From Candidatus Thorarchaeota archaeon (lineage in GTDB: Archaea; Asgardarchaeota; Thorarchaeia; Thorarchaeales; Thorarchaeaceae): a DNA stretch of 64,000 bases. Shown in pieces: positions 39,007 through 51,171 of this stretch; the stretch's first letter is position 1; each line of letters starts with the position of its first letter. The notes below the pieces were generated by a model. The model was not told the origin of the DNA and ran no database searches. It saw only the letters and a list, made by a program, of their open reading frames with translations. Location: NCBI GenBank assembly GCA_048882485.1, contig JBHLRP010000011.1, positions 8,015 to 72,014 on the forward strand, read 5' to 3'. The position numbers were made by a program, and so were the translations under genes.

Positions 39007-39780
39007 GTGAAGGTTTCTGCGATGCAAGAACGTCTCCAATCTGAACTCTTCGCCTCAATAGCAACCCTTGACCAGCTGAAGAAGATGTTCGACATGGGCA
39101 TAGTCGACATCAGATCCTATCAGAGGGAGTCTGAAGCACTGGCCAGTGAGGTAAAGGCGAATATTGCAGACCTGAAGCGCATCGGTCTAGATTTCGGCAC
39201 CTTCATTCAGACTGAACGTGTTGCAGAACGATTCCCTGATGCTATTATGCTGCTTGACATTTCCCGACGTGAAAATAGATACCGTGGCGACGGCATGACA
39301 ATGGATGAATATTATGACCACATTGGCCTCGCGATTCTTGATGTGGCAACTGTACATGCATCCAAGGGACTCATGGGACTGGCTGAACTGATTGTTGAAG
39401 TTGTGAAGCGCATGCCTGAGCTAAAGGCAATAAGCTATAGTGATGTAATTGAGGCTGTCAACCGTGTAGCTGAGCACGGGCTAATCCCTGGAATTCGGAC
39501 TCTGCGCGGTGGCGTGAAAGTTGTCGAGCTCCGCCCGCTTGAGCTCCGGAGGGACCAAGCGGATGTGGTGAACCTCGCTGCATCAAAAGGCTATGTTTCC
39601 GTTGAAGAAGTAATGATGCTTATGAAATGGTCTGAGGATCATGCAAGGCAAGTCCTATCCAGTCTAGTAGACGCCGGTATGGCAGTGGCAGACATTCGAT
39701 TCTCAACCGGGGGCAGATACTACTTCCCAGGTCTACGTGCTAGGGACTCCAGCGATGGTGGACCTATCTCACGGCGATAG
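39007..39780 (+). CDS. ESCRT-II Vps22/36 (EAP30)-like protein with N-terminal Vps28-core-like segment
   Basis: aa 101-243 tandem winged helices (EYYDHIGLAILDV, PLELRRDQADVVNLAASKGYVSV, KWSEDHARQVL, YYFPGL); aa 8-85 SELFASIATLDQLKKMFDMGIVDIRSY; likely start 39022. Confidence 0.88.
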   Translation: MKVSAMQERLQSELFASIATLDQLKKMFDMGIVDIRSYQRESEALASEVKANIADLKRIGLDFGTFIQTERVAERFPDAIMLLDISRRENRYRGDGMTMDEYYDHIGLAILDVATVHASKGLMGLAELIVEVVKRMPELKAISYSDVIEAVNRVAEHGLIPGIRTLRGGVKVVELRPLELRRDQADVVNLAASKGYVSVEEVMMLMKWSEDHARQVLSSLVDAGMAVADIRFSTGGRYYFPGLRARDSSDGGPISRR

Positions 39781-39781
39781 G

Positions 39782-40504
39782 TTAAACGACAATCTTGATT
39801 GCCCCTTTCTTCTTATCCACCCAATCTGCAAGTCCTTTCTCTACCATTATTAGGAGTATCTGATGAAGGTCCTTCTCTGGCAGTCTAGCGAAGCTATACT
39901 CCTCTTCCTGAATGACTATTGATTTGACATCTAGTCTAACCTTTCCTGACTTCAAAGCCCATTCATAGATAATGTCCGCCCATTCCTCAAGGAATCTCCA
40001 GTAGACTCGCAATTGTCTTCGGTTTCTATCCAACCATTCTGCAATTTCTTTCTCAACAAGCACATTGCCAATTAACTTGAAAGAATCAATCTTATTCGTA
40101 ATATCGTTGAAGGGGGGCTCCTTGATGAAGGCGGTCACGGATAGGACATGAACATCATGAGCTTCCATCCATCTAAGAACGAAATCAGACCACTCTTCAG
40201 CCCACATGTTTCTGTCTTCTTCTCGAGGAGGTATACCATACATCCACTCCGTCTGTGTAAGATCTCCCCAGGGAGGCATGATGACAACTTCTTCCGTTTC
40301 GACTAAAACCTCCTCGGCTTCTACAGTTTCTTCGACAGCAGTGTCTGTTTCCACTTGCGTAATAACAACTTCTGGCTTGTGGATTTCCTCTGCTTCTTCA
40401 ATCTCTTCGACAGGAATTACTTCATCTACAGTGGGTTCTGCTGTTGAGGTTTCTGACGTAGTCTCTTCCTTCTCCTTCTCCCTACGTCTTTCTCTGACAC
40501 CCAC
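39782..40504 (-). CDS. vps25: ESCRT-II Vps25-like protein with acidic N-terminal extension
   Basis: WMYGIPP..WAEEWSDFVLRW, PPF, VYWRFLEEWADIIYEWA, GLADWV tandem winged helices; context beside Vps22 and Vps4. Confidence 0.85.
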   Translation of the reverse strand: MGVRERRREKEKEETTSETSTAEPTVDEVIPVEEIEEAEEIHKPEVVITQVETDTAVEETVEAEEVLVETEEVVIMPPWGDLTQTEWMYGIPPREEDRNMWAEEWSDFVLRWMEAHDVHVLSVTAFIKEPPFNDITNKIDSFKLIGNVLVEKEIAEWLDRNRRQLRVYWRFLEEWADIIYEWALKSGKVRLDVKSIVIQEEEYSFARLPEKDLHQILLIMVEKGLADWVDKKKGAIKIVV

Positions 40505-40507
40505 TCC

Positions 40508-41731
40508 CTAGGAACCCTCCGCCCAATCGATATACCTCTTAACATCCTCTGGAGAAGTTGCTGGCCTTATGTTCTCAATCGCCTGCAGGAAATCCTCTCT
40601 GGATACAGGTCGAATATTAATGATCTTTTCTTCATCATCCATTCTTCCAGTACGCTGTAGGTCCCTTATTGGCTCCATGGCTGCTTCTCTACAGACGACA
40701 CTTATATCGCGTCCACTATAGCCCTCACTGAGGTCCGCAAGCTCCTCATAGTTGACTTCGGGAGCGACTTCTATCTCTTCCATGTGGATCTCGAAGATTC
40801 GCTTTCTAGCTGGCTTATCTGGGAGGGGCACGTGAATCTTCTTCTCAAACCTTGACCGAAGAGCGAAATCCAATTCCCATGGTAGATTTGTTGCACCAAT
40901 AACTGTGACCCTATCTTCAAGATCACTGGCGAGTCCCTGCAGCTCTGTTAGAAGCTGAGTCTTGAGTCTTCTTTCTCCTCCAACATCATCACCTGACCTA
41001 GAAACTCCGACAGAATCCAGCTCGTCCATGAAGACTATGGCAGGCTGATTTCGTCTGGCCAACGTGAAGAGATTCATGACTAGTTTCTCAGACTCACCAA
41101 GCCACTTGCTCACAATGTTGCCTGCTGAAACGTTGAAGAAAGTGGCATTCACCTCGGATGCCACTGCTTTTGCGATCAATGTCTTTCCACATCCCGCAGG
41201 ACCGTAGAACAATATTCCTCTCCAAGGCTGACGAGACTTCCCTTTGAAGAGCTCTGGATGCTTCATTGGCGCAATAATCGCATCATGAATTGCCTGCTTG
41301 GCATTCTCCAAGCCTGCAACGTCGCTCATCTTGACCTTAGGTTTCTCAGTGATGATTGTGTCAGCTATCATCTCCTGCAGTCTTCGGGTATCTTCATCAA
41401 CCTCAGCTTCAGAAGCTGTTGCTTCCGTAGACTTTTCCGCTGTTGGCTCTGCTTCAGCAGGAGAAAACACTGGCGGCGTTGTCAAACCATCTGGAGGGCC
41501 TCTCGCCTTCTTCTTTATTCCAGAGATATAGCGGACTCTGTCAACACACTCTTGTGCCCTGTCAAGGTAATGTTTCTGGACTGAGGGCAGAGATGCTGCA
41601 TTTGACAGTTTGATCAGAATTTTGCTTGCTTTCAGATAGTACTGAGCAGCTTCCTTCTTCATTCCTCTCTGGTCAAGCTCTATGGCCTTGTCAAGTAGGT
41701 TTTTCAAGCCCTGGTCTAATCTATCAGACAT
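40508..41731 (-). CDS. vps4: Vps4 AAA+ ATPase (MIT plus AAA)
   Basis: MIT (KAIELDQRGMKKEAAQYY), DVAGLE, PWRGILFYGPAGCGKT, SKWLGESEK, FMDELD, RRLKTQLL, GATNLPWELD, GYSGRDI. Confidence 0.95.
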   Translation of the reverse strand: MSDRLDQGLKNLLDKAIELDQRGMKKEAAQYYLKASKILIKLSNAASLPSVQKHYLDRAQECVDRVRYISGIKKKARGPPDGLTTPPVFSPAEAEPTAEKSTEATASEAEVDEDTRRLQEMIADTIITEKPKVKMSDVAGLENAKQAIHDAIIAPMKHPELFKGKSRQPWRGILFYGPAGCGKTLIAKAVASEVNATFFNVSAGNIVSKWLGESEKLVMNLFTLARRNQPAIVFMDELDSVGVSRSGDDVGGERRLKTQLLTELQGLASDLEDRVTVIGATNLPWELDFALRSRFEKKIHVPLPDKPARKRIFEIHMEEIEVAPEVNYEELADLSEGYSGRDISVVCREAAMEPIRDLQRTGRMDDEEKIINIRPVSREDFLQAIENIRPATSPEDVKRYIDWAEGS

Positions 41732-41891: not shown

Positions 41892-42515
41892 GTGGTGAGA
41901 CTTTTGGATTCACTCAGAAAGGCATTCAGATGGGGTCGGAAAAAACCCGACATTGGAGAGGTTTCCAGCCAACTCAGAATTCTAACGAAACAACTTGCCC
42001 GTGAGAGAAACAAGTTGGAGAAGGAAGAACGTGATACAAGGGCGCGAGCTATCAAGGCTCGCCAAGCTGGACAAATGGATGCCTTCAAGACCTATGCAAC
42101 TGAGATGGTACGTTTCAGAAGATATGCGCTCTCTACAGACAAGGCACGGCTTCAGATTCTCAAAATCCTTACCCATCTCAATCGTGCACAGACATCGGCA
42201 AGAACAGGCCGCGCACTCGAGGAGGTGGCAAAGATCCTCGGAATGCTTGGCGATACAAGTGACACCCGCAGGCTTGTTGAGAATGTTGATGAGATTACTC
42301 GTCGACTAGACGAATTCGAGATTGAGAGCGCTATATCTGCAGAGGCGCTTGATGCAAGCATGGAAGTCAGTTCAGATGATTTAGCTGCAGCTATGCAGGA
42401 GATAGATGTGGAAGTCGGATTAGCTGATGCAGCATCCGTGGCAGCTAGGCCTGCGTCTGAATCGGAAACTCTTGAGAAAGACATTAAGGATTTGGAGCGT
42501 GAACTGGGCATCTAG
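41892..42515 (+). CDS. ESCRT-III subunit, Vps2/24/46 (CHMP1-3) class
   Basis: Basic helical hairpin QLARERNKLEKEE..KARQAGQMDAFKTYATEMVR, acidic C-half, terminal MIM1-like LEKDIKDLEREL; divergent from vps4. Confidence 0.9.
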   Translation: MVRLLDSLRKAFRWGRKKPDIGEVSSQLRILTKQLARERNKLEKEERDTRARAIKARQAGQMDAFKTYATEMVRFRRYALSTDKARLQILKILTHLNRAQTSARTGRALEEVAKILGMLGDTSDTRRLVENVDEITRRLDEFEIESAISAEALDASMEVSSDDLAAAMQEIDVEVGLADAASVAARPASESETLEKDIKDLERELGI

Positions 42516-44087
42516 TTACCATCTGTACCCATGACCATGCCTTGTTGCACGCTCGATTTCACGATTGGTCTGATATGAGTCGCGCATGAGACCCCGATAT
42601 CTTCTGATGAAGTCTTCAGGGACCAAGTGTCCGTTTCTCATTAGATGTAGAGTTTCGTTAATCGCATTTTGAATCTCTAGTGCGTTTCTCCTGAGATATT
42701 CCATATCAGATTCGGCAGTTGTATACGAAGGGTCTCGATAGTACCCTCGTCCATAGTCCGTGCGTCCAAGAGTGTCCTCAAGATGCTCCTTGAACGCTTT
42801 AGGATGGTCATAAGGATTCTCAATTCGCCCATATCTTGATGGAGCTGGTCGTGGCTGATAGAATTCAGTTCTCCTAGGATATCCTCGCTGTACTTCTGAG
42901 GCATTTCCAGTTGCGGAGAGCAATGAGTATACCAATCCCTCTATCTTGAGTCTGACATCGCTAATGTTGAGGTTCTTCTGCTCGATTTTTCGAACTCTCT
43001 GAAGATCACTCTGCATATACTTCTCAAACTTCCTCGCAATCTCAAAATAATCTGGCATGACCTTTTTTGTTTCCTCGCTGCAGGAGATCTTCAAATCGCC
43101 CTGTTTTAGTCGCAATACAATTCTCTTGCGAAGTCGACCATCTTCTTCGATATCTTTCAAATACATCAGTGGAAACTGGAATACAATCTCAGTCTTCTTG
43201 CGTAATCTTCCTGTCTCAGCTACTAGGAATAGCCTCTTGTTTGTGATGAAGAGTGTGCCGTAGGCTTTGTCATTTTTCAAGAAGTTGCTACCTACAACCT
43301 TGATGTCCGGCAGAGCAGCTACAGGCAATTCATTAACAGATAGCTCGCCATGTTCATAGAACTCTGCGAATTCCTGCCTATGATAGCTCAGACCATCAAG
43401 TTGCGCCATTACTTCCTGCAGTCTTGGTCTGACCTCATGAAGGCTATCATCGACATGTTGCTTGTAGTACGTGCCGAGCTCTGATACTCTATTTCTGACA
43501 CCTTCAATGAAGGGGAACTGAGCAGGAGTCCACTTGCTATAGTCAATGAGGCCTTTTGTTTCAGCAGCGATTTGCTTTGCTACTATCTCAGCTTGATTTC
43601 CAATTCGGCTCTTGATTGCAGGCATCTCATCCTGCACTGACTCGACTTTTTCCTCTATCCAATGATAATGTAGGAAGTTAGCCATCCTGAGAGATACAAG
43701 CGTTCTTTTGGCATTATCAAGCTTGGTCATGAACTCTCGCAATTTGGTATGGCCGTACTGAATGCTCATGATGGCTTGCCTAAGCTCTTGAGCCAGAGTT
43801 CGTCGTTTCTCTTCCAATAGGATTATGCGACTTGAGTGGCATCGAGGACAAATGTCAGCTGTGCGTCTACCTGTGTCAATGTTCTCAGATTCACACTCAG
43901 GACAGCTTTCTATCTCTTCGCCCTGTAACGTTGTCAATGTTGCGTGACACTCACGGCACATGTGATACTCTTTGGTTCTTGAGTCAAGGCACTCTGAGCA
44001 TAGCACAGTCCCACAATCTTCACACAAGTGACTGGCTCTGTTTCTTTGACAGACAGGACAGCGATGAGATGAGGAGTCTAGTGTCAA
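42516..44087 (-). CDS. B-box/Zn-finger, coiled-coil, PH/GRAM-like, Vps23-steadiness-box-like protein
   Basis: CPVC..H.CEDC..LCSEC plus three CxxC pairs (aa 10-83); helical aa 90-240; GTLFITNKRLFLV (aa 277-289); NAINETLHLMRNGHLVPEDFIRRYRGLMRDSYQ (aa 474-506). Confidence 0.7.
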   Translation of the reverse strand: MTLDSSSHRCPVCQRNRASHLCEDCGTVLCSECLDSRTKEYHMCRECHATLTTLQGEEIESCPECESENIDTGRRTADICPRCHSSRIILLEEKRRTLAQELRQAIMSIQYGHTKLREFMTKLDNAKRTLVSLRMANFLHYHWIEEKVESVQDEMPAIKSRIGNQAEIVAKQIAAETKGLIDYSKWTPAQFPFIEGVRNRVSELGTYYKQHVDDSLHEVRPRLQEVMAQLDGLSYHRQEFAEFYEHGELSVNELPVAALPDIKVVGSNFLKNDKAYGTLFITNKRLFLVAETGRLRKKTEIVFQFPLMYLKDIEEDGRLRKRIVLRLKQGDLKISCSEETKKVMPDYFEIARKFEKYMQSDLQRVRKIEQKNLNISDVRLKIEGLVYSLLSATGNASEVQRGYPRRTEFYQPRPAPSRYGRIENPYDHPKAFKEHLEDTLGRTDYGRGYYRDPSYTTAESDMEYLRRNALEIQNAINETLHLMRNGHLVPEDFIRRYRGLMRDSYQTNREIERATRHGHGYRW

Positions 44088-50265: not shown

Positions 50266-50337
50266 CTTGTATTATTCACGTCCGACATAGTCTTATTTCT
50301 AAGATCTACCAATGGCTTCCTAGGAGCTTGGACGACA

Positions 50338-51171
50338 ATGTCCAACAAGAGATCGGTTCAAGGCATATGGCTGATTGAGCGTGGTAGCGGCAGAAATCTC
50401 GTTAGTAGAGCCTATGCCAATATCGAAATCGACATGGACTTGATTGCTCCTTTTCTTTCGGCAACTCACACCTTCATAGACAAAGCAGCACAAGAGAGTC
50501 TCAAGACTATTGATACAGACACAAATCGCTACATCTGGGAGGCGAATGATTATCTTCTCTTTGTAATGGTTGTTTCCAAAAGCGCTCGAGTCAGCCATAT
50601 GCGCTTCATCCTTGAATATGCTATGAACGAATTCATGAAGAATCAGATACCCCCTGACAAAGACATTGAAATGATGCTGAAACAATGGCATGGACGACCT
50701 GGCCAGTTTAGGAAATTCGGGACTTTCATTGATGAACTCGTAAGTCAATACGAGGTTACAGACGAAAGCCTTGTAGCCGGAAAATCGATGGACTGCCTTG
50801 CTGTCTACAGTCATCTTTTCAAAGCTCTCATGAAGGTCAAGACTGACTCTGATACACGGAAGAAGCTTGTGAGGCGAATCAGAAAGTCGATAAAGCCTAT
50901 CAAGGAATTCTACAGTTTTCTCGATGTGGTTGCTGTCGATTCTGGTGGTATTGATGTCCTGAGTATTGATGTTAATATCGCTCCCTATAAGGAACTTAGA
51001 GTCGCATTGGAAGAGATATTGAAAATGCTGAGTCAAGTAGTTCAGGAAACCGTTTCCAAAAGAGTCTACCAGACAATGTTATTCAAGCACGCAATGCCAT
51101 ATGTGAAGTCAGACGTAGAGCGTCTTCAAACATATGCAATCCTCGATGATGTGATTCGACATCTATTCTAG
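50338..51171 (+). CDS. Longin-like domain protein with helical C-terminal region
   Basis: VQGIWLIERGSGRNLVSR..DLIAPFLSATHTF..LLFVMVV follows the beta-beta-alpha-beta-beta-beta-alpha longin pattern common in Asgard archaea. Confidence 0.7.
   Translation: MSNKRSVQGIWLIERGSGRNLVSRAYANIEIDMDLIAPFLSATHTFIDKAAQESLKTIDTDTNRYIWEANDYLLFVMVVSKSARVSHMRFILEYAMNEFMKNQIPPDKDIEMMLKQWHGRPGQFRKFGTFIDELVSQYEVTDESLVAGKSMDCLAVYSHLFKALMKVKTDSDTRKKLVRRIRKSIKPIKEFYSFLDVVAVDSGGIDVLSIDVNIAPYKELRVALEEILKMLSQVVQETVSKRVYQTMLFKHAMPYVKSDVERLQTYAILDDVIRHLF

Follow-up and report, generated by a model that had tools for sequence, protein, structure and literature searches.

Several lineages of Asgard archaea encode Znr_CC_PH_SB (asCOG cog.011556, also written Znr_PH_CC_SB), a protein family that is absent from eukaryotes and is likely ancestral in Asgard (Makarova et al. 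2024, mBio 15:e00335-24, PMC10936438). The same study regards the family as a likely component of the endosomal sorting complex ESCRT-I and expects its PH domain to be membrane-associated. A protein of this kind, ThorAB25_08990|SB, is listed in Supplementary Data 1 of an earlier study that included yeast two-hybrid screens (Hatano et al. 2022, Nat Commun 13:3398, PMC9192718), and the legend of Supplementary Figure 8 in that study names RING, CC and PH among the drawn domains, together with steadiness boxes (SB). The family cog.011556 has also been used as the "Steadiness/Vps23 box" family in a study that reports Loki- and Thorarchaeia to be without UEV-Vps23 (Lu et al., bioRxiv 10.1101/2023.07.25.550441). 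Here, we describe a gene at positions 42516-44087 (minus strand) of a 64,000-nucleotide stretch of contig JBHLRP010000011.1 from a Candidatus Thorarchaeota archaeon (the window). We are nearly certain that this gene is the Thorarchaeota ortholog of Asgard Znr_CC_PH_SB, the "SB" of Hatano et al. 2022, and we refer to its product as the SB protein. An AlphaFold2 (AF2) model of the full-length protein (mean predicted local distance difference test score [pLDDT], 85.3; predicted template modeling score, 0.65), together with sequence profiles, divides the gene as follows.

42516..44087, minus strand: whole gene, encoding a Znr_CC_PH_SB-type protein (open reading frame, homologs and distribution among Asgard genomes)
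43818..44069, minus strand: zinc module of six CxxC knuckles, amino acids (aa) 7-90 (12 invariant Cys, DZR and zf-B_box matches, weak fold matches)
43359..43817, minus strand: helical region, aa 91-243, with four long helices at 91-135, 143-176, 188-217 and 219-243 (AF2, pLDDT 90-98)
43014..43358, minus strand: PH/GRAM/GLUE-like domain, aa 244-358; its two basic loops, 293-298 and 317-322, are conserved (structural comparison, Pfam, basic-residue conservation)
42909..43013, minus strand: pair of short helices that follow the PH domain, aa 359-393 (AF2 helices 362-370 and 376-390, pLDDT >90)
42720..42908, minus strand: disordered linker rich in R, Y and P, aa 394-456 (pLDDT <50 at 394-431 and 440-456; composition)
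42531..42719, minus strand: steadiness-box hairpin of the Vps23-core type, aa 457-519 (AF2 helices 457-484 and 490-519; profile matches)

The open reading frame at 42516-44087 is genuine and strongly conserved. It is a single open frame of 523 aa with a TTG start, stop codon included, and is present in one copy in its own genome. More than 160 close homologs were found, almost all of them labelled Thorarchaeota "hypothetical protein," and an exhaustive search returned about 100 cluster representatives, including 600-830-aa proteins of Promethearchaeota (Loki-type) and Sigynarchaeum. The family profile has matches in 294 of the 301 sampled Asgard genomes, and these matches are strong in many families and weak in others. 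One 505-aa homolog (P0057; 60% identity over 96% of the query) has the same first and last 40 residues as ThorAB25_08990, and the ESCRT genes around the SB gene are in the same order as ThorAB25 genes 08990 (SB), 09000 (ESCRT-III), 09010 (Vps4), 09020 (Vps25) and 09030 (Vps22). Compared to Asgard Znr_CC_PH_SB in general, the SB protein has the same series of domains, which runs from zinc ribbons through coiled coil and PH to steadiness box, the same ESCRT neighborhood, the same restriction to Asgard and the same interpretation as an ESCRT-I-like protein at the membrane. We found no real difference between them; the form in the window is compact (523 aa), and Loki-type members reach 600-830 aa because their linker is longer. 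The first-pass annotation of this stretch, made from the sequence alone, did not recognize the architecture from described proteins. That judgment has to be withdrawn: the combination of zinc module, helical region, PH domain and steadiness box was published in 2022 (Hatano et al.) and 2024 (Makarova et al.) and is not new.

The first Met of the 523-aa protein is residue 43, which lies within the zinc module. In the homolog alignment, orthologs share an N-terminus of the form "MT.D...", and the TTG start codon is therefore correct. Database models of the SB family are often N-terminally short (470-505 aa) and begin at a Met aligned with residue 21. These short models are without the first invariant CxxC knuckle (C10, C13), and the published sequence of ThorAB25_08990, which begins at the Met aligned with residue 21, is among them. 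In the window gene, residue 21 is Leu instead of Met (the region of aa 1-20 is at 44027-44087, minus strand), and the gene therefore needs the upstream TTG start.

Searches of Pfam, NCBIfam and PDB with the single sequence gave weak zinc-finger and bPH matches and no match to Vps23_core; per-domain family alignments were therefore needed. In the AF2 model, the PH/GRAM/GLUE-like domain has PH topology, with strands at 255-335 followed by a helix at 338-352. The signature GTLFITNKRL (277-286) falls within this fold, and the basic loops GRLRKK and GRLRKR are located at 293-298 and 317-322, all as the first-pass annotation had read them. In structural comparisons (VIA), aa 242-358 match the PH-GRAM domain of MTMR2 (Z = 12.4, root mean square deviation = 2.6, 107 residues aligned), the PH-like domain of Lam6 (Z = 11.8) and the GLUE domain of EAP45 (2hth_B; Z = 11.3, 20% identity), which bears out the predicted PH fold. 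The EAP45 GLUE score is within about 1 Z unit of GRAM and other PH folds, and bacterial PH domains are close behind. The top PDB sequence match of the PH family profile is the GLUE domain of yeast Vps36 (E = 0.009), and Pfam searches among 36 members matched bPH_3 in 27, Vps36_ESCRT-II (PF11605) in 16 (best E = 8.7e-4) and GRAM in 15. DH-PH RhoGEFs topped the Foldseek search with the whole model, with TM-scores of about 0.2 and root mean square deviations of 18-25 Å; given these values, the PH part alone truly aligns, and we rejected a DH-PH relationship.

The basic loops would fit a position of this domain at the membrane. Between 64% and 92% of family members have K or R at positions 296-298, 318 and 321-322, and their PH regions carry a median net charge of +5. 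We infer that the PH domain is located at the membrane via these loops. The domain could instead be a module for binding proteins or cargo, with membrane contact made by partners of the SB protein. The near-tied structural matches, which include EAP45 GLUE with ubiquitin (2hth, 2dx5), the PTB domain of CCM2 and Dcp1, would agree with such a role. However, the top matches are the lipid-associated PH-GRAM domains of MTMR2 and Lam6, the basic loops are conserved in a region of net positive charge, and no ubiquitin was found in the genome that carries the gene. We therefore consider a purely protein-binding domain unlikely. The ubiquitin search covered a genome that is 90.5% complete, which gave no match to UEV either; the control genomes were also silent for both families, and the absence is therefore weakly evidenced. 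It agrees with published statements that Thorarchaeota are without ubiquitin and UEV-Vps23.

The same domain invites comparison with yeast and human Vps36 (EAP45). Both proteins have a PH/GRAM-type fold, and yeast Vps36 also carries zinc fingers and a PH domain in one protein. However, the zinc fingers of the SB protein are N-terminal CxxC knuckles, whereas those of Vps36 are NZF fingers inserted in the PH domain. The SB protein is also without the EAP30 winged-helix domains of Vps36: Pfam gave no EAP30 match in the protein, and the AF2 model contains no winged-helix domain. A helical hairpin, in place of winged helices, is predicted to link the SB protein to Vps22.

That hairpin lies at the C-terminus, beyond the linker. 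Of the 64 residues from 395 to 458, 9 are R, 8 are Y and 7 are P. The stretch is disordered in the AF2 model, consistent with the P/Y/R-rich linker described initially, and its length is highly variable across homologs of 484-836 aa. The tail behind it, with a motif at aa 474-506, had been likened to the steadiness box of Tsg101, and the family-level evidence supports the likeness. A family profile of aa 455-523 matches the yeast Vps23 core in PDB (2f66_A, E = 6.9e-6; 2p22_A, E = 2.3e-5) and TSG101 (6vme_B, E = 3.3e-4), and 20 of 35 diverse family members match Pfam Vps23_core (best E = 2.9e-7). No Vps23_core match was found in the whole genome of the organism, a result that does not imply absence, since the Pfam model is too short and too diverged for this clade. 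With Vps23/Tsg101 (and Vps37), the SB protein thus shares, at the family level, a C-terminal hairpin of the Vps23-core type, for which pairing with a hairpin of the Vps28 type is predicted. It differs from Vps23/Tsg101 in having no UEV domain (no match at E-values up to 10) and a zinc module at its N-terminus, and in having long helices upstream of a PH domain; what precedes the steadiness box is a disordered linker instead of a stalk. The proposal that one protein combines Vps36-type membrane sensing with a Vps23 core in place of UEV is supported as regards a PH fold and a Vps23-type tail; membrane sensing by the PH module stays a presumption.

Hairpins of this type also turned up in another protein family. 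A 992-aa ribophorin I family protein on another contig of the genome (C20; L004:4728-7706, minus strand; FKBP_C, Big_7 and Ribophorin_I domains) has a steadiness-box-like hairpin near aa 845-917 (SB family profile, E = 6.5e-4). The SB profile also matches PDB chain 8whn_A, named "Ribophorin 1 superfamily protein" (E = 7.9e-4), and, in a Loki-type genome (L006), a ribophorin I gene adjoins the homolog of the SB gene. These observations may indicate a link between ESCRT and oligosaccharyltransferase.

The SB gene is part of a compact cluster of five ESCRT genes, whose order is identical in a Thorarchaeota relative with an SB protein of 54% identity. The other four genes are listed below.

41892..42515, plus strand: ESCRT-III of the Snf7 family (Pfam Snf7, E = 2.3e-11; the ThorAB25 equivalent is labelled ESCRT3A), convergent with the SB gene
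40508..41731, minus strand: Vps4 (matches to MIT, AAA and Vps4_C domains)
39782..40504, minus strand: Vps25, of ESCRT-II (Pfam ESCRT-II, E = 6.7e-16)
39007..39780, plus strand: Vps22-like protein (EAP30, E = 2.2e-14; SNF8, E = 6.1e-20) with an N-terminal steadiness-box hairpin of the Vps28 type, the predicted docking partner

The Vps22-like protein has about 70 extra residues at its N-terminus, which are steadiness-box-like and contain the motif ELFASIATLDQL. An hhalign comparison of this N-terminus with the SB profile gave a probability of 75.7% (E = 2.4e-5). When the Vps22 family profile was compared to PDB, its winged-helix part matched SNF8 (E = 6.1e-20), and its positions 6-69 had weak matches (E = 0.15-0.28) to the N-terminal cores of yeast Vps28 only. 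Judged from these profiles, the N-terminus resembles a Vps28-N hairpin fused to Vps22, in agreement with the report that Asgard Vps22 (cog.002769) is fused to SB (Makarova et al. 2024, PMC10936438).

To this N-terminus, the tail of the SB protein is predicted to dock. We modeled the complex of the tail (aa 455-523) with aa 1-85 of Vps22, each given as an alignment, alongside three controls. The interface score (ipSAE) of the tail-Vps22 model was 0.83, compared to 0.02 for the best of the three controls; 58 of 80 solved complexes attain the mark used for this score, as do 2 of 110 mismatched pairs. Three runs agreed in 100% of contacts, with a pLDDT of at least 83 for the partner, and placed tail residues 480-509 in contact with Vps22 residues 8-45. 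In a yeast two-hybrid assay, the Lokiarchaeota SB protein was found to interact with Vps22 (Hatano et al. 2022, PMC9192718). The model suggests a direct link from ESCRT-I to ESCRT-II via the pair of hairpins on SB and Vps22.

The SB protein could also be a classical ESCRT-I subunit. As for Vps23 in eukaryotes, the main partner of its steadiness box would then be a free-standing Vps28 that in turn bridges to ESCRT-II, leaving the contact with the Vps22 hairpin secondary or absent. According to Hatano et al. (2022, PMC9192718), Loki- and Thorarchaeota have a free-standing SB protein that "may interact with Vps28," and there is a weak match to the Vps28 profile in the genome of our organism (contig C10; 21.6 bits, E = 3.2e-4). 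However, this match falls short of the 24.5-bit Pfam cut-off, hmmscan of the 427-aa protein concerned did not reproduce it, the published Thorarchaeota protein set (Hatano et al. 2022) contains no Vps28, and a Vps28-type hairpin is found fused to Vps22 and pairs with the SB tail in the complex model. Hence, pairing with a free-standing Vps28 as the principal contact appears quite improbable, and we favor docking on Vps22. The 427-aa protein itself is helical (L005:6047-7330, plus strand); the sub-threshold Vps28 match covers its aa 65-207, and aa 247-379 weakly match a BAR domain (E = 8.4e-4). It is possibly a diverged Vps28-like protein; we rejected it as Vps28 because the match is too weak and PDB gave no match.

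The N-terminal part of the SB protein is a zinc module, of which the first part is B-box-like and the remainder zinc-ribbon-like in sequence. CxxC pairs are located at aa 10, 22, 30, 44, 62 and 80, and all 12 Cys are invariant in an alignment of 35 diverse homologs. The three further CxxC pairs that the first-pass annotation placed at aa 44-83 are therefore present and fully conserved. The B-box-type Cys/His spacing that it assigned to aa 10-33 stands with regard to the CxxC spacing and fails with regard to His: the same alignment contains no conserved His in the zinc sites. Presumably, the module holds three Zn(Cys)4 sites with all-Cys ligands, unlike the Cys/His ligands of classical B-boxes. 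The isolated N-terminus matches DZR at 28.0 bits, above the cut-off of that model; its zf-B_box match, which spans positions 3-30 of the 42 in the profile, reaches 23.9 bits and stays just under the cut-off of 24.1. Among the 35 family members, zf-B_box matches are found in 33 (best E = 1.3e-6), DZR matches in 31 and RING matches in 12. In the window protein, the RING-type model zf-C3HC4_3 scores 16.1 bits against a cut-off of 27, and, in the homolog alignment, the B-box-like knuckles are not preceded by a separate RING. An AF2 model of aa 1-100 alone had a pLDDT of 82.9. For the zinc module alone, Foldseek gave no match at E ≤ 0.001, and VIA gave a mix of TRIM B-boxes, RING domains, ZZ domains and MCM-type zinc ribbons, all with Z ≤ 5; the B-boxes of TRIM5, TRIM29 and TRIM21 (Z = 3.2-5.0) are tied with zinc ribbons and RINGs. 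The module is followed by the four long AF2 helices of aa 91-243, matching the approximately 150 aa of helix anticipated from the sequence.

In the initial label, a B-box-like spacing of the zinc knuckles is thus justified; the term TRIM-like draws on that spacing, and a relation to TRIM proteins is not established by either the bit score or the structural scores. The corresponding function, that of a TRIM-like E3 ligase for ubiquitin or a ubiquitin-like protein, made up of B-box and coiled coil, draws on the B-box and RING matches among family members, on the B-box-coiled-coil of TRIM5alpha among the top structural matches (Z = 5.0) and on the "RING" in the figure legend of Hatano et al. (PMC9192718), but we consider it extremely improbable given the sub-cut-off scores of the window protein for both B-box and RING, structural Z values at noise level, all-Cys zinc ligands, no ubiquitin or UEV found in the genome, and a conserved context of ESCRT genes, not of a ubiquitylation cascade.

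Taken overall, the best explanation of these data, and in our view a likely one, is that the SB protein is an upstream, ESCRT-I-like adaptor of the adjoining ESCRT-II, ESCRT-III and Vps4 machinery. We hypothesize that the PH/GRAM/GLUE-like domain would bind anionic membrane lipids via its conserved basic loops and so place the protein on the membrane, where the triple-zinc module and the helical bundle would bind cargo or a partner, standing in for the missing UEV. From there, the flexible linker of about 60 aa would, according to the structure model, tether the C-terminal Vps23-type hairpin, which is predicted to pair with the Vps28-type hairpin on the N-terminus of the neighboring Vps22. Docking on Vps22 would then recruit Vps22/Vps25 and, subsequently, ESCRT-III and Vps4. 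As a whole, this four-part mechanism is as apt to fail as to hold.

Several points weigh against this interpretation. The tail of the window protein has no Vps23_core match of its own, because the Thorarchaeota clade has diverged; the matches come from the family profile and from more distant members. The score of the complex model may reflect likeness to solved ESCRT-I headpieces (2f66, 2caz, 2p22, 6vme) instead of binding, because these hold an analogous pair of Vps23 and Vps28 hairpins. PH-like folds can also bind proteins, as in EAP45 GLUE with ubiquitin and in Dcp1 and PTB domains with peptides, all of which are among the near-tied matches of the PH domain, and we found no experimental lipid-binding test for the SB family in the literature from 2024 onward. 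Finally, the assignment to cog.011556 is drawn from shared architecture and from sequence homology with members 600-800 aa long in other Asgard lineages.

Some further features of the locus and the genome were recorded. The ESCRT-III gene (plus strand) ends at 42515 and abuts the stop codon of the SB gene (minus strand) at 42516, with zero intergenic spacer (42513-42518), and abutting convergent ends of the same two genes are also found in a related locus (L007, 8557/8558). The genes flanking the cluster encode two TldD/PmbA proteins, ArgRS, TFIIB and a class II aminoacyl-tRNA synthetase (D, K, N type). A second ESCRT-III (Snf7) gene is located outside the cluster on another contig (C2, L013; 60.4 bits), and ESCRT3B of ThorAB25 (07240) is likewise unlinked. 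At 50338-51171 (plus strand), a 277-aa open reading frame weakly matches (E = 0.0026, below the cut-off) the FUZ/MON1/HPS1 first longin domain; because an open reading frame at 50320-51036 on the opposite strand overlaps it, this gene call is uncertain.

What this analysis adds to the published family is modest: one ortholog, a high-confidence structure model, a note on the correct start codon and the prediction that the steadiness box contacts the Vps28-type hairpin of Vps22. That a Vps36-like PH and zinc-finger module and a Vps23-like steadiness box are joined in one Asgard protein, and that Thorarchaeota appear to run ESCRT without ubiquitin, is already contained in Hatano et al. 2022 and Makarova et al. 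2024. More tentatively, and with somewhat more doubt than confidence, we suggest that Thorarchaeota, in which ubiquitin and UEV are not detectable, may have the SB protein as their sole upstream ESCRT module, in which the PH domain would read the membrane, the zinc module would read a signal other than ubiquitin, and the hairpin pair would plug into ESCRT-II. If true, ESCRT-I and ESCRT-II would be collapsed into two proteins in these archaea; the parts of such a system are published, and their direct wiring in Thorarchaeota is predicted here. The SB family therewith bears on the origin of the eukaryotic bridge from ESCRT-I to ESCRT-II.

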